DNA from: Lachnospiraceae bacterium
Lineage (GTDB): Bacteria > Bacillota > Clostridia > Lachnospirales > Lachnospiraceae
NCBI GenBank assembly: GCA_051888795.1
Contig: JBJFCD010000199.1
Span: 12,509 to 76,508 of the forward strand
Length of the DNA stretch: 64,000 nt
Direction of reading: 5' to 3'
Shown: positions 28,805-59,740 of the stretch, one piece after another
Layout: every line of letters begins with the position of its first letter
Numbering within the stretch: the stretch's first letter is position 1
Notes under the pieces: model-generated
Databases searched by the model: none
The model's input: the letters and a program-made list of their open reading frames with translations, nothing else
What the model was told of the DNA's origin: nothing
Made by a program: the position numbers and the translations under genes

Positions 28805-29488
28805 ATGAAGTTAAAAAGGATGTTGCCATTTTTTATTCTGATTGGGAGTCTGCTTCTGATAAGCTGTTCAAGTGATTCTGCTTTAAAAGAAAACTCATCA
28901 GAAGAGCAACAAAACATTGAACAAACTGAAGAATCTAATGAGAATGAAGTTGAGACTGATACGGAAGAAGAGGCTGAGAATACAGAAGATAATAACAATG
29001 TTGAGAATCAGGGAAATGATACCGAAAAGAATCAGGAATCTTCTATGTCTGAATTTGACAAAAAGATAGAAGAAATACGTCAGAATTATGATGAAATAAA
29101 AAATAATCTTTCAAAAATGCAAAAATTTGATGCGGGAGAAGTTGTGCAATATTTGCAAAACGATAAGATTAGAAAGATAGTTGCACCTCCGGGGACATAT
29201 GATCAGATGGATGGTTATGGTGATCTTGAAGATTATACAGCAGAGTATTATTATACGAAAGATGAAAGACCTGTGTTTGTATTTGTATATAATAAAAAAG
29301 AACAATATCGATTTTATATACAGGTAAGCGAAGAAACTATGTCAAAATGTATTCGGTATATTGATGAAAACGGTGTTGTTCATGATTATCCGGAAGGTAA
29401 GGCTGTAGATGAGATTGAGGAAATTTCAAAAGTAGGCGGATTCTTTATGCTGGCGTATCAGGAATTACACTGGGCAGGACGATTATAG
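28805..29488 (+). CDS. Lipoprotein with acidic linker and uncharacterised C-terminal domain
   Basis: Lipobox LISC; E/N-rich spacer; domain shared with 37921-38694. Confidence 0.8.
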   Translation: MKLKRMLPFFILIGSLLLISCSSDSALKENSSEEQQNIEQTEESNENEVETDTEEEAENTEDNNNVENQGNDTEKNQESSMSEFDKKIEEIRQNYDEIKNNLSKMQKFDAGEVVQYLQNDKIRKIVAPPGTYDQMDGYGDLEDYTAEYYYTKDERPVFVFVYNKKEQYRFYIQVSEETMSKCIRYIDENGVVHDYPEGKAVDEIEEISKVGGFFMLAYQELHWAGRL

Positions 29489-49645: not shown

Positions 49646-50338
49646 GTGGAGAATATGGATAACAGGATCAACGTTCTGGATATTAGTATTGACAATTATA
49701 CAGCGAAAGAAGCAATGAAATGTTTTGTAGAATTCATCCGGACGGAGCCGATCGATGTCATTGAGATGGTGACGGTGGAAAGTCTCATGCAGATGGCTGA
49801 AACTCCGGGACTTAAAGAGAATACCGGTGACTTTGAGCTGATTCTGGCAGGAGAGACTACGATTTTGGAATCTGCCGGGATTACGGATAAGAATTTTTTG
49901 ACTCAGACAGAAAAGCAGACATTTTTAAAAATGCTGTTTAGATATCTTCATAAGAATCATAAGAGGGTTTATCTCTTGGTTGATACACAGGAAGAAGGGC
50001 AGATTTTGTATGACTTTCTGGAACGTCATTATCATGGGATACAGATAGGTGGTATGGCGAAGGTTGCGGATGAGGATCGTGCGGATGATATGATTGTGAA
50101 TGCTGTAAACGGGGCAGATATTGATTGCGTTATCTCTATAATGTCATCTCCGCTGCAGGAAGATTTTATTTTGAAAAACAGAAGTCTTTTGAATGCCCGC
50201 GTATGGCTTGGACTTGGGAAAGAAAATCTTGATTTGAAAAAGACGGGTATTATGCAGGGGCGCTTTACACAGTTCTTATTGAAAAAAGTTTTTCAGAAAG
50301 AAGTCGAGAGAAGAAAAAGAGAGATTTCAATTCAGTGA
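49646..50338 (+). CDS. Degenerate WecB/TagA/CpsF family protein
   Basis: INVLDISID, IN..D.D...SPLQE.FI..N...LNARVWLGLG. Confidence 0.65.
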   Translation: MENMDNRINVLDISIDNYTAKEAMKCFVEFIRTEPIDVIEMVTVESLMQMAETPGLKENTGDFELILAGETTILESAGITDKNFLTQTEKQTFLKMLFRYLHKNHKRVYLLVDTQEEGQILYDFLERHYHGIQIGGMAKVADEDRADDMIVNAVNGADIDCVISIMSSPLQEDFILKNRSLLNARVWLGLGKENLDLKKTGIMQGRFTQFLLKKVFQKEVERRKREISIQ

Positions 50339-50577: not shown

Positions 50578-51666
50578 ATGATATCTAATCAAATACTTCA
50601 AAACACAATTGAAGGATTGAAAAGCATTGCAAGAATCGACTTCTGCGTTATGGACACTGATGGAAAATCTCTGGCAAGTACTTTTTCGGAACAGAGCAAT
50701 CATGAGGATGAAGTGTTATCTTTTGTCAACTCATCGGCAGATAGTCAAGTTGTGCAGGGATATCAGTTCTTTAAGATCTTCGATGAACATCAGTTGGAGT
50801 ATATTCTTCTTGCCAATGGCGGCGGTGATGACGTTTATATGGTTGGTAAGATGGCAGCTTTTCAGATCCAGAATCTGCTGGTAGCCTATAAAGAGCGTTT
50901 TGATAAGGATAATTTTATTAAAAATCTTTTGCTGGATAATCTCCTTTTGGTTGATATTTATAACCGTGCCAAAAAATTACATATTGACACAGAAGTGAGA
51001 CGTGTTATCTTTATTATTGAGACGAAGCATGAAAAGGACAGCAGTGCGCTTGATAATGTTCGCAGTCTTCTTGGAAGCAAGGCGCGGGATTTTGTGACTG
51101 CTGTGGATGAGAAGAATATTATTGTCGTTAAAGAACTTGATGCAAATGACGGTCATGTGGAATTGGAAAAGATTGCTCATAATTTCTATGATATTTTGAA
51201 AAATGATGGGGAAGAAGACGTTCTGATTGCATATGGTACAATTGTGAATGATATCAAAGAAGTGTCAAAATCATATAAAGAGGCAAAGCTTGCGTTGGAT
51301 GTGGGAAAAATTTTCTTCTCTGAAAGAAATGTAATCGCATACAGTACGCTTGGAATCGGAAGATTGATCTATCAGCTGCCAATTCCGCTTTGCAAGATGT
51401 TTATAAGAGAGATTTTTGAGGGGAAATCACCGGATGATTTTGACGAAGAGACATTGACAACGATTAACAAATTCTTTGAAAACAATCTGAATGTCTCAGA
51501 AACATCCAGACAATTGTATATTCATCGTAATACGCTGGTATACCGTCTGGATAAACTCCAGAAAAGCACAGGGCTGGATCTGCGAGTGTTTGAGGATGCC
51601 ATTACTTTTAAGATTGCCTTGATGGTTGTTAAATATATGAAGTATATGGAGTCGTTGGAGTATTAA
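50578..51666 (+). CDS. CdaR/PucR family transcriptional regulator
   Basis: C-terminal LNVSETSRQLYIHRNTLVYRLDKLQK.TGLDL. Confidence 0.9.
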   Translation: MISNQILQNTIEGLKSIARIDFCVMDTDGKSLASTFSEQSNHEDEVLSFVNSSADSQVVQGYQFFKIFDEHQLEYILLANGGGDDVYMVGKMAAFQIQNLLVAYKERFDKDNFIKNLLLDNLLLVDIYNRAKKLHIDTEVRRVIFIIETKHEKDSSALDNVRSLLGSKARDFVTAVDEKNIIVVKELDANDGHVELEKIAHNFYDILKNDGEEDVLIAYGTIVNDIKEVSKSYKEAKLALDVGKIFFSERNVIAYSTLGIGRLIYQLPIPLCKMFIREIFEGKSPDDFDEETLTTINKFFENNLNVSETSRQLYIHRNTLVYRLDKLQKSTGLDLRVFEDAITFKIALMVVKYMKYMESLEY

Positions 51667-55645: not shown

Positions 55646-55746
55646 ATTTTCGTATGATAAAATGTTTTTGGAATCATTTTATATGATTATAACATGCAGT
55701 AATAGTGCAGAGAGTTTTTGATAATAAAACGAAAGGATATAAGAGC

Positions 55747-57024
55747 ATGAAAATACTGATTAAAAATGGCCATGTGGTAGACCCCTTGACAAAAACGGAT
55801 GAGTGTTCTGATGTGTTGGTGGATGGCGACCGCATTGTAAAAGTTGAAAAACAGATAGAGGAAAAGGCGGATCAGATAATCGAAGCAGATGGATGCTATG
55901 TAATGCCGGGATTTATCGATCTTCACGTACATTTTAGAGATCCCGGACTGGAATATAAAGAGACACTGGAGACCGGAGGAAAGGCAGCGGTGAGAGGCGG
56001 AGTAACAACAGTCTGCGCAATGCCGAACACAAAACCGGTCATTGATAATGGTGAAAAAGTAGCTGAAGTACACAGAAGAGCGAAAGAAGAATCTCTGACA
56101 CATGTGATCCAGATCGGAGCTGTGACAGTTGGACAAAAAGGCGAGGAACTGGCAGACATTGAGGGAATGGCAAAGGCAGGATGTCATGCGATCAGCGAAG
56201 ACGGAAAGTCTGTGATGAATGCATCTTTGTACAGAAAAGGCATGAAGATTGCAAAAGAACAGGGGATTTCCGTGTTCGCACACTGTGAGGACATTAACAT
56301 GGTAGAAGGCGGTGTCATGAATGCGGATAAGAATACAGAGCGTCTTGGTCTTCGCGGAATCACCAATTCTGTGGAAGATGTAATTGTTGCAAGAGATATT
56401 CTTCTTTCAAAAGAAACAGGAGTAAGGCTCCATCTTTGTCATTGTTCTACTGAGGACAGCGTGAAGATGATCAGAGAAGCAAAAGAAGAAGGACTTCCGG
56501 TTACAGGAGAGGTGTGTCCGCATCATTTTATTCTGACATCCGATGATATTAAAGAAGATGACGGAAATTATAAGATGAATCCGCCCCTTAGAAGCAGAGT
56601 AGATGTGGAAGCATTGAAACAGGGACTGAAAGATGGAACAATGGATGTAATTTCCACAGACCATGCGCCACATTCTGCTGAAGAAAAAAACAAGTCTATG
56701 GCAAAGGCAGCGTTTGGAATCGTCGGGCTTGAGACAAGTGCTGCTCTCACATATACGTATCTTGTAAAAGAAGGAATTTTAAGTGTGATGGGCATGGCAG
56801 AAAAGATGAGCTATAATCCCGCAAAGATTTTGGGACTGACAGAAAAAGGTTCTGTATCAGAAGGTAAAATTGCGGATATTGTAATCTTTGATCCGGATAA
56901 AACTTATAAAATTGATAAGAACACATTTGTTTCTAAAGGGAAAAATACACCGTTTGACGGGTTTGAAGTATCCGGAGAAGTGAAATATACTCTTGTGGAT
57001 GGAAAAGTTGTTTACCAGGCATAA
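55747..57024 (+). CDS. pyrC: Dihydroorotase
   Basis: DLHVHFRDPG, MPNT, KMNPPLR, TDHAPH; ATG 55747. Confidence 0.95.
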   Translation: MKILIKNGHVVDPLTKTDECSDVLVDGDRIVKVEKQIEEKADQIIEADGCYVMPGFIDLHVHFRDPGLEYKETLETGGKAAVRGGVTTVCAMPNTKPVIDNGEKVAEVHRRAKEESLTHVIQIGAVTVGQKGEELADIEGMAKAGCHAISEDGKSVMNASLYRKGMKIAKEQGISVFAHCEDINMVEGGVMNADKNTERLGLRGITNSVEDVIVARDILLSKETGVRLHLCHCSTEDSVKMIREAKEEGLPVTGEVCPHHFILTSDDIKEDDGNYKMNPPLRSRVDVEALKQGLKDGTMDVISTDHAPHSAEEKNKSMAKAAFGIVGLETSAALTYTYLVKEGILSVMGMAEKMSYNPAKILGLTEKGSVSEGKIADIVIFDPDKTYKIDKNTFVSKGKNTPFDGFEVSGEVKYTLVDGKVVYQA

Positions 57025-57045: not shown

Positions 57046-57969
57046 ATGAGAATGATCAACAAGTTAGTTTCAAACATTAAAAAGACAGGAGCGCCGATTG
57101 TAGTAGGACTTGATCCGATGTTAAATTATGTGCCGGAGCATGTTCAGAAAAAAGCATTTGCTGAATACGGAGAAACACTGGAAGGAGCAGCAGAAGCAAT
57201 CTGGCAGTTTAATAAAGAAATCGTAGACAAGACATATGATCTGATTCCGGCAGTAAAGCCACAGATTGCTATGTATGAACAGTTCGGTATCCCAGGACTT
57301 TTAGCATTTAAAAAGACCGTGGATTATTGTAAGAGCAAAGACCTTGTGGTGATCGGAGACATTAAGCGAGGGGATATCGGCTCCACATCTGCAGCATATG
57401 CAGTCGGACACATCGGAAAAGTACAGGTAGGAAGCAAAACTTATGCTCCATTTGATGAAGATTTTGTCACAGTAAATCCATATCTTGGCTCAGACGGTGT
57501 AAATCCATTTGTAAACGTATGTAAAGAAGAAAAGAAAGGACTTTTCATCCTTGTAAAAACATCAAATCCATCCAGCGGCGAATTCCAGGATCAGCTCATC
57601 GACGGACGCCCACTCTATGAACTCGTAGGCGAAAAAGTAGCCGAGTGGGGCGCAGACTGCATGGGAGATGAATACAGCTACATCGGAGCAGTAGTAGGAG
57701 CAACCTATCCTGAGATGGGAAAAGCACTTAGAAAAATCATGCCAAAAAGCTACATCCTCGTACCAGGCTACGGCGCACAAGGCGGAAAAGGAAAAGACCT
57801 CGTACACTTCTTCAACGAAGACGGCCTGGGCGCAATCGTAAATTCCTCAAGAGGAATCATCGCCGCATATAAACAGGAAAAATATGCAAAATATGGAGCG
57901 GAAAACTTCGGCGATGCATCCAGAGCAGCAGTGGAAGACATGGTAGGAGACATCAAAAGCGCATTATAA
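57046..57969 (+). CDS. pyrF: Orotidine-5'-phosphate decarboxylase
   Basis: VGLDP, KPQIAMYE, DIKRGDIGST, VVGAT, PGYGAQG, NSSRGI. Confidence 0.96.
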   Translation: MRMINKLVSNIKKTGAPIVVGLDPMLNYVPEHVQKKAFAEYGETLEGAAEAIWQFNKEIVDKTYDLIPAVKPQIAMYEQFGIPGLLAFKKTVDYCKSKDLVVIGDIKRGDIGSTSAAYAVGHIGKVQVGSKTYAPFDEDFVTVNPYLGSDGVNPFVNVCKEEKKGLFILVKTSNPSSGEFQDQLIDGRPLYELVGEKVAEWGADCMGDEYSYIGAVVGATYPEMGKALRKIMPKSYILVPGYGAQGGKGKDLVHFFNEDGLGAIVNSSRGIIAAYKQEKYAKYGAENFGDASRAAVEDMVGDIKSAL

Positions 57970-57975
57970 AACACA

Positions 57976-58018
57976 AATTTGGGACGTAGACTTTTTTAAA
58001 AATACTACGTCCCAAATT
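57976..58018. repeat. Perfect 14-bp-stem palindrome between pyrF and pyrK
   Basis: AATTTGGGACGTAG-15-CTACGTCCCAAATT. Confidence 0.95.
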
Positions 58019-58049
58019 GGAAAATGGGGTGTACCTGAAAGGAGTTTTT

Positions 58050-58832
58050 ATGGATAGAAGGAAAGAATGTGTGACGGTTTTTTCGCAGGATATGCTGGCG
58101 GATGGGATCTTCAGTATGTGGATTCGTACGGATGTGGCGGCTGAGGCCAGGCCGGGGCAGTTTATTGCTATGTATACGAATGATCCAAGTAAGCTTTTGC
58201 CGAGACCGATCAGTATTTGTGAGATTGACAGAGAAAAGAGTCTTTTGAGGGTTGTGTATCGTGTGACTGGTGAAAATACGGGAACAGAGCAGTTTGCCAG
58301 AATGAAAGCGGGAGATACGCTTGATGTGATTGGGCCTTTGGGAAATGGATTTCCTTTTGAGAAGGCTGTTGGAAAAAAAGTATTTCTGATGGGAGGCGGT
58401 ATTGGCGTGCCTCCGATTCTGGAACTTGCAAAACAGATTGACTGTGCGGAAAAACAGATTGTTGTAGGATATCGTGACGCGCAGACATTTTTAAGGGAAC
58501 AATTTGAGGAAAACGGCAGATTATATATTTCGACGGAAGATGGAAGTGTAGGGACGAAAGGTAATGTTATGGATGCGATCAGAGAAAATGCTCTGGATGC
58601 TGATATCATTTTTGCCTGCGGGCCGATGCCTATGCTCCGCGCAATTAAACAGTATGCCGAAGAAAAAGATATAGAATGCTATATTTCTTTAGAAGAGAGA
58701 ATGGCCTGTGGTATCGGTGCGTGTCTTGGATGTGTGTGTAAGACGAAAGAAAAAGATCATCACAGCAATGTAAATAACAAGAGAATCTGTAAGGATGGCC
58801 CAGTATTCTTGTCTACGGAGGTGGAAATTTAA
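58050..58832 (+). CDS. pyrK: Dihydroorotate dehydrogenase electron transfer subunit
   Basis: LPRPIS, GPLGNGF, GGGIG, CGP, MACGIGACLGC..C.DGPVF. Confidence 0.95.
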   Translation: MDRRKECVTVFSQDMLADGIFSMWIRTDVAAEARPGQFIAMYTNDPSKLLPRPISICEIDREKSLLRVVYRVTGENTGTEQFARMKAGDTLDVIGPLGNGFPFEKAVGKKVFLMGGGIGVPPILELAKQIDCAEKQIVVGYRDAQTFLREQFEENGRLYISTEDGSVGTKGNVMDAIRENALDADIIFACGPMPMLRAIKQYAEEKDIECYISLEERMACGIGACLGCVCKTKEKDHHSNVNNKRICKDGPVFLSTEVEI

Positions 58833-59740
58833 TGGCAGTAGATATGCGTGTAAATATAGCAGGTGTTGAGTGGAAAAATCCGGTGACAGTAGCTTCCGGC
58901 ACTTTTGGCTCCGGTGCGGAATTTGCAGAGTTTGTAGATTTAAATAAACTTGGTGCTGTGACCACAAAAGGTGTGGCTAATATCCCGTGGGCCGGTAACC
59001 CGACGCCGAGAGTTGCAGAGACATACGGAGGCATGATGAATGCCGTGGGACTTCAGAATCCGGGAATCGATCTTTTTTGTGAGAGAGACATTCCGTTTTT
59101 GAAGCAGTATGACACAAGGATCATTGTAAATGTGTGCGGAAAATCCACAGAAGATTACTGTGAGGTTGTCGAGCGCCTTGCGGACGAAGATGTGGACATG
59201 TTAGAAATCAATATTTCCTGTCCAAATGTCAAAGAGGGCGGGATTGCTTTTGGTCAGAATCCAAAAGCGGCAGAAGATATTACAAAATCGGTAAAAAAAT
59301 ACGCAAAGCAGCCGGTTATTATGAAGCTGAGTCCTAATGTAACAAGCATTGCAGAGATGGCAAAGGCAGTAGAAGCCGGTGGAGCTGACGCAATATCTCT
59401 GATTAATACATTGACCGGTATGAAAATAGATGTAAACCGCCGCAAATTTGTAATTGCGAATAAGACTGGCGGTGTGTCAGGCCCGGCCATTCACCCGATT
59501 GCAGTGCGCATGGTGTACGAAGCAGCGCATGCAGTCAAGGTGCCAATTATCGGTATGGGAGGCATCGCAAAAGCGGAGGATGCGATCGAGATGCTCCTTG
59601 CAGGTGCAGATGCAGTATCTGTTGGAACCGCAAACTTCCACAATCCGGCAGTGACGATGGAAATTGTAGCCGGTATTGAGAGATACATGGAACAGTATGG
59701 CTTTTCCCATGTGTCCGATATGGTTGGAATAGTAGAATAG
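58832..59740 (+). CDS. pyrD: Dihydroorotate dehydrogenase (class 1B) catalytic subunit
   Basis: ASGTFG, NAVGLQNPG, NISCPNV, KLSPN, GGVSG, GMGGI. Confidence 0.97.
   Translation: MAVDMRVNIAGVEWKNPVTVASGTFGSGAEFAEFVDLNKLGAVTTKGVANIPWAGNPTPRVAETYGGMMNAVGLQNPGIDLFCERDIPFLKQYDTRIIVNVCGKSTEDYCEVVERLADEDVDMLEINISCPNVKEGGIAFGQNPKAAEDITKSVKKYAKQPVIMKLSPNVTSIAEMAKAVEAGGADAISLINTLTGMKIDVNRRKFVIANKTGGVSGPAIHPIAVRMVYEAAHAVKVPIIGMGGIAKAEDAIEMLLAGADAVSVGTANFHNPAVTMEIVAGIERYMEQYGFSHVSDMVGIVE

Follow-up and report, generated by a model that had tools for sequence, protein, structure and literature searches.

Why do two neighbouring genes of one operon, read from the same strand, use opposite sets of synonymous codons on the two sides of a short palindrome? 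The question is raised by the pyrF-pyrK junction of the Lachnospiraceae genome studied here (G000), which lies within the window, i.e., the whole stretch of 64,000 nucleotides that was analysed, to which the positions below refer. The open reading frames pyrC, pyrF, pyrK and pyrD are all encoded on the + strand; an earlier sequence-only reading of this DNA had placed pyrF and pyrK on the same strand of one operon. The pyrF gene (orotidine-5'-phosphate decarboxylase; 57052..57969, + strand) was assigned from the open reading frame list and from orthologs, present in 40 of 41 searched genomes with G000 itself counted, which include a protein with 99% amino acid identity in the sister species G001. 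Its start is likely the ATG at 57052, because the upstream ATG at 57046 is too near the AGGAGG box. The pyrK gene (dihydroorotate dehydrogenase electron-transfer subunit; 58050..58832, + strand) was assigned from the same list and from the orthologous downstream frame in relatives.

An in-frame recount reproduced exactly the third-position counts of the earlier reading. A or C occupies 113 of 140 third positions at 57541-57960 (A60, C53, G13, T14) and 31 of 60 at 57061-57240, while G or T occupies 86 of 110 at 58050-58379 (G43, T43, A18, C6). The coding-strand baseline of third-position A/C (AC3) is 0.438 for the genome, with a standard deviation of about 0.06 for 110-140 codons, and the binomial P is 3.6e-19 for the pyrF and 1.2e-6 for the pyrK interval. 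When about 78,000 sliding windows from 2,870 long open reading frames of the 3.9-Mb assembly are ranked by third-position A/C, the 3' half of pyrF comes first (0.80-0.82) and the 5' end of pyrK is one of the four most G/T-rich (AC3 0.21). The A/C-rich synonymous tract on the strand approaching the palindrome covers 57376..57966 (+ strand; pyrF codons 110-307) as delimited by sliding counts and a maximal-segment scan; its AC3 climbs from about 0.45 to 0.8-0.97 and its segment score of 46.3 is the second highest genome-wide. The G/T-rich tract on the strand leaving it covers 58050..58500 (+ strand, sliding counts), has an AC3 of 0.10-0.30 and is back to about 0.45 by approximately 58500. Chance or a local oddity is ruled out by the genome-wide rank and by 23 further copies of the element to which the palindrome belongs.

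This element is REP-like, comprises about 68 nt (57970..58037, no strand assigned) and was delimited by the alignment of G000 with G001, the listing of spacers and the family of copies; in the pairwise alignment G001 has no element between pyrF and pyrK and its spacer is 12 nt. The sequence, its DNA fold and the family alignment define a palindromic hairpin AATTTGGGACGTAG-(15 nt)-CTACGTCCCAAATT at 57976..58018 (no strand assigned), in which a stem of 14 bp pairs 57976-57989 with 58005-58018 (DNA dG -17 kcal/mol, z=-5.3) and which contains the conserved arms GGGACGTAG (57981-57989) and CTACGTCCC (58005-58013). A single tail repeat GGTGTACCT, recognised in the family listing (58027..58035, + strand), merges into the ribosome-binding site of pyrK. 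The family unit has about 90 nt, consisting of the hairpin GGGACGTAG…CTACGTCCC and one to three TGTACC direct repeats, and 24 copies are present genome-wide, every one of them intergenic; the dispersed copies carry no open reading frame and in about half of the family the hairpin begins 0-12 nt past a stop codon. GTAG and its complement CTAC, positioned within the stem, are invariant across all copies, and the stem shows covariation, as three inner-stem variants still pair (GACTTTTT/AAAAAGTC, GTATTTTT/AAAAATAC and GTAAAAT/ATTTTAC); the inner stem of the pyrF/pyrK copy is a hybrid of two of them (GACTTTTT / AAAAATAC). A consensus scan found no intrinsic terminator in 57400-58500, the stem being followed by AAATTGG and not by a U-tract, and a known RNA family was rejected as Rfam matches were at chance level only.

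The earlier reading had pointed to a HUH nuclease, and a gene for a predicted enzyme of this kind is present, flanked by two element copies. It is a Y1-HUH gene of 255 amino acids at contig C41:16523-17290 and the sole match to PF01797 in the genome (C41:16559-16888, 43.3 bits with a cut-off of 23; protein residues 13-122, E=2.9e-10). Most element copies are singlets with a one-sided tail, and the sole inverted pair, at C41:16403 and C41:17360, brackets this frame with both tails pointing toward it. The best NCBIfam match is the REP-associated tyrosine transposase (RAYT) model NF047646 (75 bits, residues 4-139), slightly short of the equivalog cut-off of 80 bits, and the IS200 model yields 16.4 bits versus its cut-off of 55. 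The translation contains the putative HUH motif 'HAHFII' (in 'STHAHFII') and the putative Tyr motif 'YIHMNPV' (LRYIHMNPVKAG), whose catalytic roles are assigned by resemblance rather than by alignment to a solved structure. An IS200/IS605 insertion sequence was rejected on the basis of a single Y1 gene, of dispersed copies devoid of reading frames and of the low IS200 score; the single-copy count is to be read with an assembly completeness of 90.5%. RAYT orthologs, usually one or two per genome, were found in 42 of 50 other element-carrying genomes. It is thus well supported that the palindrome between pyrF and pyrK belongs to a REP/RAYT system as a copy of its mobile REP-type element.

The proposal that the skew is anchored on the palindrome was borne out at the other copies. 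After correction for coding strand, 23 of 24 left flanks have an excess of A/C on the + strand (z=+14.8) and 18 of the 20 right flanks with enough sites show the reverse (z=-11.2). The same polarity was found at 120 loci of other species from other genera, in which control gene ends are flat. The mirror skew therefore flanks almost every copy here and is found in many other gut Lachnospiraceae, and it obeys one rule on either strand, i.e., A and C are in excess on a strand read 5' to 3' toward the element, and G and T on one read away from it. The shift forms a plateau from 0 to 400-500 nt and declines toward baseline by 600 nt on both sides, with complete return on the leaving side; codon positions 1 and 2 show no shift, so that synonymous sites only are affected. 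The RAYT gene, though lying between two copies, shows weak skew. The 248 other perfect hairpins of the genome reach just +0.03/-0.02, and the metagene rise toward gene ends is +0.02-0.05 in the last ~100 nt, by which, together with the flat control ends, a generic effect of gene 3' ends or terminators was rejected.

Does the skew follow the element? For the last ~143-167 codons, AC3 was compared between genes next to an intact copy and orthologs without one, and the hairpin-less orthologs were found to lack the bias, as the earlier reading had required. The AC3 of pyrF is 0.81 with the intact copy versus 0.31-0.59 without (0.31-0.48 in ten genus members, 0.51 in the relative G008 and 0.59 in G001), and the values are 0.65/0.64 versus 0.32-0.46 for gpmI, 0.71/0.63 versus 0.53 for thiC and 0.61 versus 0.45-0.55 for a gene on contig C240. 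An argJ-like gene is graded, with 0.63 next to an intact copy, 0.50 next to a degenerate copy or remnant and 0.34-0.44 where there is none. Polarised substitutions show the same dependence. In G000, beside intact copies, 72 of 317 ancestral G/T sites changed to A/C versus 51 of 492 control sites (p=3e-6) and 14 of 484 sites changed to G/T versus 29 of 479 (p=0.02). In the tract where G001 has no intact copy its rates are near its control rates, and where a copy is absent or degenerate the directional change stops or reverses (22:43 versus 72:14 with intact copies). In the pyrK tract, 15 of 43 ancestral A/C sites changed to G/T in the G000 lineage versus 0.069 per site elsewhere in pyrK. The base changes are the expected transition pairs, T>C and G>A on the approaching strand, meaning that the outgoing strand gains G/T. 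The favoured direction is raised about 2.2-fold and the disfavoured one lowered about 2.1-fold, the total rate being nearly unchanged. Near the elements, G000 and G001 have diverged no more at synonymous third positions than elsewhere (0.212 versus 0.237), by which hypermutation was rejected; the roughly two-fold drop in the disfavoured direction is also not predicted by simple added hypermutation. That the skew depends on RAYT is only suggested by loci that keep the REP, with 5 changes to A/C and 13 to G/T in the RAYT-less G001 versus 9 and 5 in G000 (p=0.07); among other species, genomes with and without RAYT differ non-significantly (0.504 versus 0.481), in a comparison confounded by the incompleteness of metagenome-assembled genomes.

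From base composition we infer, with nearly an even chance of being right, a strand-asymmetric resynthesis or repair that is anchored at RAYT nicks. The earlier reading, which the results support in part, had invoked putative nicking, strand displacement and deamination. RAYT would cut single-stranded REP DNA, leaving by HUH chemistry a free 3'-OH on the segment running into the element and capping the 5' end of the outgoing segment through a phosphotyrosine link, and cutting would be symmetric on both strands because the hairpin is palindromic. Up to ~500 nt might then be removed from the free 3' end and synthesised anew, or this end might be extended in a rolling-circle-like fashion, displacing the capped strand. 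Either way, the outgoing strand would repeatedly be single-stranded or serve as template, so that its C>T and A>G changes would become fixed, the incoming strand then showing G>A and T>C, while changes of the incoming strand would be overwritten. Such resynthesis would explain why the skew is polar, mirror-symmetric and limited in length, why the changes have a transition spectrum, why one direction rises as the other falls and why the total rate is nearly constant. HUH chemistry yields a 5'-phosphotyrosine and a free 3'-OH (PMC3333891). A gain of G/T on the strand whose 5' end is at the element fits this chemistry and is opposite to what 5' to 3' resection of a break would leave; breakage at the hairpin followed by canonical resection was rejected by this argument from established resection polarity.

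The main rival, which we consider rather unlikely, is natural selection on flank composition. After the stable hairpin had settled behind a stop codon, weak selection on each silent site would favour a two-letter A/C alphabet in the RNA or single-stranded DNA entering the hairpin and G/U(T) beyond it. Possible benefits are a flank free of competing structure, the loading of a factor seeking C-rich and G-poor sequence such as Rho, or escape from G/U-dependent endonucleases. A favoured direction going up and a disfavoured one going down at near-constant total is the pattern of fixation bias, and a shift of synonymous sites alone also agrees with selection. Genes transcribed toward the element show roughly double the effect of those transcribed away from it (+0.15 versus -0.08), which favours selection and is not predicted by a purely symmetric DNA process; non-coding flanks, which show no clear skew in few clean sites that are confounded by tail, ribosome-binding site or promoter sequence, may likewise agree with selection. 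However, 84 unrelated hairpins and terminators with equally strong stems of at least 14 bp show only about +0.03, ordinary gene ends are flat, and the distance from stop codon to hairpin is without influence (0.513 at up to 15 nt, 0.518 at 16-30 nt, 0.509 at 31-60 nt), by which ribosome stalling at a hairpin at most 15 nt from the stop was rejected as well. The tracts also run counter to translational preference, since, in a codon table compared with EF-Tu, GAPDH, RpoB/C and others, the rare codons ATA, CAA, GCC, GGC and AGC are raised and the optimal codons GGT, CGT, GCT, GTT and TCT are depleted; the shift acts at the nucleotide level and is not codon optimisation. Further, an 839-nt RNA of the locus folds no better than its shuffles (z=+0.8), so that no long stem links the flanks and a giant RNA stem joining the A/C and G/U sides was rejected; the hairpin lacks a U-tract, and a reach of 500 nt with mirror polarity on a strand that is not normally transcribed fits no known benefit. 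Nor is the effect seen at the REPs of E. coli K-12, where a 400-kb sample contained no such tract and neighbouring genes lean slightly toward G/T for more than 1 kb.

Two other explanations are improbable. Outward transcripts in both directions from TTGACA-like boxes of the tail would cause C>T and A>G on the non-template, outgoing strand and hence the observed polarity, and TTGACA does occur within tail repeats while the element often lies directly upstream of the next gene's ribosome-binding site. At the pyrF/pyrK copy, however, the consensus scan found no sigma-70-like promoter pointing either way, and the tracts exceed the most highly expressed genes (AC3 of 0.37-0.54 for EF-Tu, GAPDH and RpoB/C). 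As the stronger side is the upstream gene, antisense transcription would have to surpass any sense transcription, and the fall of the disfavoured direction would stay unexplained. Equally doubtful is that the element lands or survives only at a pre-existing keto/amino switch, the skew then being the cause of its position. The ancestor of the G000 and G001 pyrF genes, inferred to have been A/C-rich already at about 0.7, and several A/C-rich gene ends that have no element today agree with such a preference, but at the three loci for which element-free orthologs are numerous (pyrF, gpmI and the argJ-like gene) the ends of these orthologs have baseline composition, and both the directional change that persists after the split with intact copies and stops or reverses otherwise and the gradation of the argJ-like gene speak against it. 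A recombinant patch from a donor with A/C-ending codons, which the earlier reading had named as an alternative, or translational codon optimisation is very improbable, as, despite a partial overlap with preferred two-fold codons (e.g., highly expressed genes use more TTC, AAC and ATC), PyrF is nearly identical to that of G001 along its full length, third-position divergence of the tract is not raised (34% versus 29-44% in the surroundings), the polarity is shared by 24 loci here and 120 elsewhere and optimal codons are those lost.

If resynthesis anchored at RAYT nicks is taken one step further, the REP/RAYT systems of Lachnospiraceae could be dispersed, hairpin-anchored initiators of short-patch resynthesis, in which RAYT would nick both strands and about 500 nt per side would be recopied from one strand, giving a mitochondrion-like skew; this is a possible generalisation with clearly less than an even chance. 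Since the description of RAYTs around 2010 it has remained open what REPs and these domesticated nucleases do in the cell, and here the genome appears to record an activity as a polar, length-limited mirror footprint at each intact copy, so strong that the codon usage deviating most in the whole genome is found in housekeeping genes (pyrF, thiC, gpmI and the argJ-like gene). A mutational or repair-based footprint would show with which polarity and how far RAYT acts in vivo, and would reveal a new local driver of evolution at silent sites; a selective one would mean that an unknown constraint acts on about 170 codons beside a mobile hairpin. Should the elements indeed initiate resynthesis, this would be the first direct genomic read-out of RAYT in vivo and a new site-anchored determinant of synonymous-site evolution. 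Either way, culturable carriers, among them Faecalicatena, Dorea, Mediterraneibacter and Hespellia, make the question open to test. Caution is warranted, as a neighbouring 90-nt element can create codon-usage outliers, 'atypical' gene segments and skewed dS-based inferences.

REP/REPIN sequences with the Y1-HUH nuclease RAYT (TnpA_REP) are known from E. coli and Pseudomonas (PMC3333891, PMC3116915, PMC2817692, PMC3733652). The present system resembles them in a short extragenic palindrome repeated around the chromosome, in a conserved GTAG/CTAC that may correspond to the GTAG (or CGTC) tag next to the REP stem (cf. PMC3333891, PMC3733652), in a single-copy Y1-HUH gene that matches the RAYT model best and is bracketed by two inverted copies, in the co-occurrence of nuclease and element across genomes and in the few copies of the nuclease-less sister species. 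In contrast, there are 24 copies instead of hundreds, and these are mostly singlets with a one-sided TGTACC tail, not REP doublets or BIMEs. GTAG is part of a perfect stem here, instead of preceding an imperfect stem on its 5' side, a C-terminal extension of ~130 amino acids is present in the nuclease and the host belongs to the Lachnospiraceae (Firmicutes). A full-text literature search did not find the flank skew in the REP/RAYT papers it returned, and going by this literature the footprint has not previously been described for REP-type elements.

The switch from A/C on the left to G/T on the right of one strand is also reminiscent of the asymmetry around replication origins and of the mitochondrial heavy strand, with which it shares the transition pair (C>T, A>G) and a gradient with distance. 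It differs in scale, with ~500 nt per side where those asymmetries extend over megabases or an entire organelle genome, in being anchored at 24 dispersed mobile hairpins and in a local amplitude above that of any other window in the genome. The likeness to a miniature replication origin drawn by the sequence-only reading was not upheld, as the switch is limited to ~500 nt per side and recurs at 24 sites, and nothing indicates origin activity.

Strand-coordinated mutation clusters of the 'kataegis' type are known at DNA breaks in yeast and tumours, where 5' to 3' resection exposes and mutates the strand that ends 3' at the break. Common to both is a mirror-image, strand-switching footprint that is centred on a DNA end and limited by single-stranded length; here the polarity is reversed, with the changes on the strand whose 5' end is at the element, and the footprint is evolutionary, fixed at silent sites and not left by a single event. 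In the rolling-circle initiation of plasmids and single-stranded DNA phages, a HUH Rep protein cuts a hairpin origin and stays on the 5' end, while synthesis starts from the free 3'-OH and drives off the outgoing strand. Displacement of this kind would give exactly the polarity observed here; in contrast to those systems there is no replicon, and the proposed event would be abortive, at no more than 500 nt, and two-sided because the site is palindromic.

Third codon positions switch composition at the palindrome between pyrF and pyrK, as the sequence-only reading had claimed in proposing a mirror-image synonymous-site skew, and its counts were reproduced exactly: 113/140 A or C in the pyrF tract (57541-57960), 31/60 A or C at the pyrF 5' end (57061-57240) and 86/110 G or T in pyrK (58050-58379). 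The ORF list places pyrC (55705-57024), pyrF (57046/57052-57969), pyrK (58050-58832) and pyrD (58832-59740) on the + strand. Plain composition shows the same switch, with GC skew dropping to ~0.03 and AT skew climbing to ~0.35 left of the palindrome and values of ~0.43 and ~0, respectively, right of it. The source assembly (G000), in which the window spans C199:12509-76508, is a draft of 3.9 Mb in 295 contigs with 90.5% completeness and 4.9% contamination; mechanical ORF calling over the whole assembly yielded a baseline of 2,870 long ORFs with a mean coding-strand A+C share at third codon positions (AC3) of 0.438 and a standard deviation of ~0.06 for windows of 110-140 codons. Among ~78,000 windows genome-wide, the 3' window of pyrF (AC3 0.80-0.82; binomial P 3.6e-19) ranks at the top and the 5' window of pyrK (0.21; P 1.2e-6) is one of the four lowest. 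Stop codons adjoin nearly all top-scoring A/C segments of the genome, several of which are then followed by the same hairpin; the observation at pyrF/pyrK is confirmed and generalised.

A genome search for GGGACGTAG…CTACGTCCC revealed 23 full copies and one half copy at a contig end, a lower bound since several contigs break at copies (e.g., the end of C82 and a run of N at C208:32258). Oriented copies share the structure AAATT-GGGACGTAGACTTTTT-n-AAAAAGTCTACGTCCC-AATTT, followed by a one-sided tail of one to three TGTACC-containing direct repeats. The inner stem exists in three variants, each keeping its pairing, two of which are combined in the pyrF copy. About half of the hairpins begin 0-12 nt past a stop codon. 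The hairpin has no U-tract, the pyrF-pyrK spacer no promoter or terminator consensus, no Rfam family matches the element and the predicted folding of the 839-nt RNA is no stronger than that of shuffled sequences. Just past the tail of the element copy at thiC (L044; C91, ~29080-29160, minus strand) lies a near-consensus promoter, TTGACA-17 nt-TAAAAT, then a structured-looking leader (…GCAGCCGGGGTGTTAGCGGTACC…) and no ORF of at least 150 aa for ~390 nt. Within the genus, only G000 and its sister species (G001) carry the hairpin, the latter with five copies, each orthologous to a G000 copy; outside the genus the pattern occurs at at least 120 loci (Mediterraneibacter, Dorea, Faecalicatena, Faecalimonas, Hespellia, Merdimonas and others). 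As draft genomes and MAGs tend to break at the element, copy numbers are underestimated and presence/absence calls at contig ends are unsafe; the sister-species contig C108 terminates at the stop codon of the ortholog of a C240 gene.

An A/C-left, G/T-right pattern is its own reverse complement and can therefore be tested without orienting the copies. With third positions corrected for gene strand, the 450-nt left flanks contain 1,913 A/C versus 1,500 expected (z=+14.8; sign-test P 3e-6) with an excess in 23/24 copies, and the right flanks 1,083 versus 1,370 (z=-11.2; P 4e-4) with a deficit in 18/20. The polarity proposed as site-anchored thus recurs at the other copies, and copies lacking flank skew, which were to count against the proposal, are the exception. 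Genes transcribed toward the element have an AC3 of 0.59-0.60 at 0-400 nt, 0.535 at 400-500 nt and ~0.47 beyond, and genes transcribed away from it 0.34-0.38 at 0-500 nt and baseline values beyond. Random genome positions show no skew, and 248 other perfect hairpins (stem of at least 11 bp) merely +0.03/-0.02 where the stem is at least 14 bp. At the 120 loci in other species, genes ending at the element show 0.50-0.52 over 0-600 nt versus 0.449 (z 6.6-10.5 per 100-nt bin), with single genes up to 0.75, genes leaving it show 0.415-0.43 at 200-500 nt, and other gene ends are flat (0.44-0.456).

Orthologs with and without the element differ accordingly. The sister-species pyrF, 99% identical in protein, lacks the 68-nt element and has a spacer of 12 nt; over the last 143 codons, G000 has an AC3 of 0.81, G001 of 0.59, another member of the genus (G008) of 0.51 and ten others of 0.31-0.48, so that the equal bias in hairpin-free orthologs, named beforehand as counter-evidence, is absent (0.31-0.59 versus 0.81). 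The corresponding pyrK values are 0.22, 0.35 and 0.38-0.53 (G000, G001 and others). Third-position divergence between the two species is at the same level in the pyrF tract (34%) as around it (29-44%), yet directional: in the pyrF 3' part, G000 has A/C where G001 has G/T at 34 sites, and the opposite holds at 3; in the pyrK 5' part the numbers are 8 versus 23, and in the regions flanking the tracts they are balanced. For gpmI, AC3 is 0.65 and 0.64 in the two element-bearing species versus 0.32-0.46 in nine element-free ones, with 46 to-A/C versus 7 to-G/T changes on the shared stem branch. For the argJ-like gene, AC3 goes from 0.63 (intact copy) through 0.50 (degenerate copy in G001, tail remnant in G008) to 0.34-0.44 in ten species that have none; a C240 gene has 0.61 versus 0.45-0.55 and thiC 0.71 and 0.63 versus 0.53. 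In a pooled polarisation of five genes by outgroup majority, which depends on parsimony and a single sister species, the G000 lineage changed to A/C at 72/317 ancestral G/T sites in tracts (0.227) versus 51/492 (0.104) elsewhere in these genes (p=3e-6), and to G/T at 14/484 A/C sites (0.029) versus 29/479 (0.061; p=0.02), with a total keto/amino change of 0.107 versus 0.082. At loci where G001 has no intact copy, its tract rates (0.105 and 0.159) are near control rates (0.107 and 0.148), which from an A/C-rich start means decay of the tract. Parsimony with G/T-rich outgroups somewhat inflates to-A/C counts in both lineages, and the tract-versus-control and lineage-versus-lineage contrasts are the robust part.

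Remnants and further tracts were also observed. The degenerate hairpin 3' of the argJ-like gene in G001 (L186; GGGATGCGGGC…) and the hairpin-free, tail-like GGTACAGG / GTGTACAC remnants in G008 (L197), with their intermediate AC3, suggest a greater age of the element family within the genus than a census by exact matches would imply. At an IclR-like gene (L171, G000 C82:15156-15914; L172, G001 C129), whose protein is 100% identical in both species and absent in the 11 other genus members, only the left hairpin arm TAGGGACGTAGTAAAATGCAATTATA is present, joined to a different palindrome (CCCCGGGG…CCCCGGGG), and the skew is still strong (last 167 codons 0.71 / 0.69 versus 0.40 / 0.42 in the remainder). 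Six G000 gene 3' ends have an AC3 of 0.65-0.8 over 75-190 codons with no element 3' of them (purF-like C167:44868-46310; C285:33101-34507; C240:16443-17933; C142:50873-52294; C153:491-2758; C124:44612-47146), most being followed by ordinary long terminator hairpins and one by no hairpin; they could be ghost tracts that remained after the element excised precisely, as for pyrF in G001, or could have a different origin. The genome's top-scoring A/C synonymous tract (codons 75-333 of 342, AC3 ~0.76) lies in a gene of unassigned function near a contig start (L170:1-1026; C243:707-1732, minus strand) with no hairpin copy; the DNA that follows is rich in G, A and T and contains repeated hairpins of the GGAGCTTTAGTGGCTCC type. 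Among the most G/T-rich windows (0.23-0.25) are WecG/TagA-like glycosyltransferase and PucR/CdaR-like regulator genes (49646-50338 and 50578-51666, +) just 5' of ftsE/ftsX, with no inverted repeat of at least 12 nt nearby. The genome has three reverse-transcriptase (PF00078) matches, on C277, C146 and C159 (loci C277:5720-8199 and C277:9599-11542; C146:3087-3662; C159:2328-2498); the 648-aa enzyme on C277 adjoins two genes that are A/C-rich over their full length (~0.6-0.7), in what is probably a mobile region of its own composition.

The shift is confined to synonymous sites, codon positions 1 and 2 showing none, and stop-to-hairpin distance has no effect. In approaching tracts, the share of C at two-fold pyrimidine sites increases from 0.26 to 0.41 and that of A at two-fold purine sites from 0.59 to 0.72; four-fold sites gain A (0.36 to 0.48) and C (0.13 to 0.17) and lose G (0.21 to 0.14) and T (0.30 to 0.21). 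The reverse is seen in tracts leaving the element. In effect the outgoing strand (5'->3' from the element) gains G and T by C>T and A>G changes, the classical single-strand or template-strand signature.

The assembly contains a single Y1_Tnp match (PF01797; C41:16559-16888), within a 255-aa ORF lying exactly between inverted element copies at C41:16403 and C41:17360; the HUH nuclease whose presence was to be checked is thus found as an ORF resembling a REP-associated tyrosine transposase (RAYT). Its top NCBIfam model is 'REP-associated tyrosine transposase' with 75 bits (cut-off 80), IS200 reaching just 16 bits, and it carries the motifs HAHFII and YIHMNPV. Full-length orthologs, usually one per genome, occur in 42/50 element-bearing genomes beyond the genus (identity 32-74%, mostly 45-74%). 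The element, the single bracketed HUH gene and their co-occurrence across genomes mark this as a REP/RAYT system of Lachnospiraceae. G001 has no RAYT, and where it keeps the hairpin 5 to-A/C and 13 to-G/T changes were counted versus 9 and 5 in G000 (p=0.07), so that a dependence of the skew on RAYT is no more than suggested.

The skew accompanies the element with its own polarity, reach and spectrum, needs an intact copy and co-occurs with RAYT; how it arises we infer. According to PMC3333891, HUH cleavage yields an incoming segment with a free 3'-OH and an outgoing segment whose 5' end is capped by protein. A RAYT cut at the element would do likewise, and the incoming segment might then be trimmed and refilled, or extended with displacement of the capped strand, so that the outgoing strand would be repeatedly exposed or copied and the incoming strand overwritten. 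Such exposure or copying would raise one direction of change and lower the other with little change in total rate, and trimming/refilling or extension would entail a length limit and two-sided symmetry at the palindrome. We tentatively favour this class of explanations, which may quite possibly account for the skew, even though the effect is about two-fold stronger in genes transcribed toward the element, the few and confounded sites of non-coding flanks show no clear skew, the RAYT gene itself is weakly affected and the case for RAYT dependence is only suggestive. The sequence-only reading is partly supported, as to site-anchoring and an HUH nuclease but not as to hypermutation, divergence within 500 nt of the element being no higher than at 600-1400 nt (0.212 versus 0.237; six loci), and its nick, strand-displacement and deamination chemistry is unproven. 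The main rival, weak selection for a pairing-incompetent two-letter composition beside the hairpin, would account for the fixation-bias-like rates and for the transcriptional asymmetry; it leaves unexplained why other equally strong hairpins have no effect, and we regard it as rather doubtful. Outward transcription is less likely still, as is insertion preference, against which in its mere form the comparative results argue. A recombinant pyrF patch, also foreseen as counter-evidence, is similarly less likely given the tract divergence and 99% protein identity, and so is codon optimisation: GGT, CGT, CTT, GCT and TCT are the codons preferred under high expression, while in tracts GGT, CGT, GCT, GTT and TCT go down, CTT is unchanged and ATA, CAA, GCC, GGC, ACC and AGC go up, and this shedding of preferred codons rules it out. 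Hairpin breakage fails on polarity, as canonical 5'->3' resection would expose the strand ending 3' at the site, opposite to what is seen.

Compared with known systems, the likeness to REP/RAYT comprises fold, motifs, a single-copy gene, bracketing inverted repeats and extragenic dispersion; the invariant GTAG/CTAC may correspond to the REP tag. The Lachnospiraceae system differs in its low copy number, in copies that stand singly with a TGTACC-repeat tail rather than as doublets, in a GTAG inside a perfect stem, in a longer protein scoring just below the curated cut-off and in its Firmicutes host. A full-text literature search of limited scope found no report of compositional skew flanking REPs. 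In 400 kb of E. coli K-12 MG1655 (eight 50-kb samples, L215-L222; 30 REP units at 19 loci), no 500-nt tract was found at REP loci; gene ends at REP/BIME loci show a slight G/T shift in the opposite direction (AC3 0.408 versus 0.452, z=-5.6) over at least 1 kb, which looks like a gene-level property and not a local tract. The footprint is therefore not a general property of REPs, at least in that sample. By analogy, replication-origin and mitochondrial strand asymmetry may be likened to the switch at the element flanks, on a very different scale, and break-associated strand-coordinated clusters would be alike in form but opposite in polarity. The element is a new member of the known REP/RAYT kind, for which the mirror-image footprint at synonymous sites appears to be a new property.
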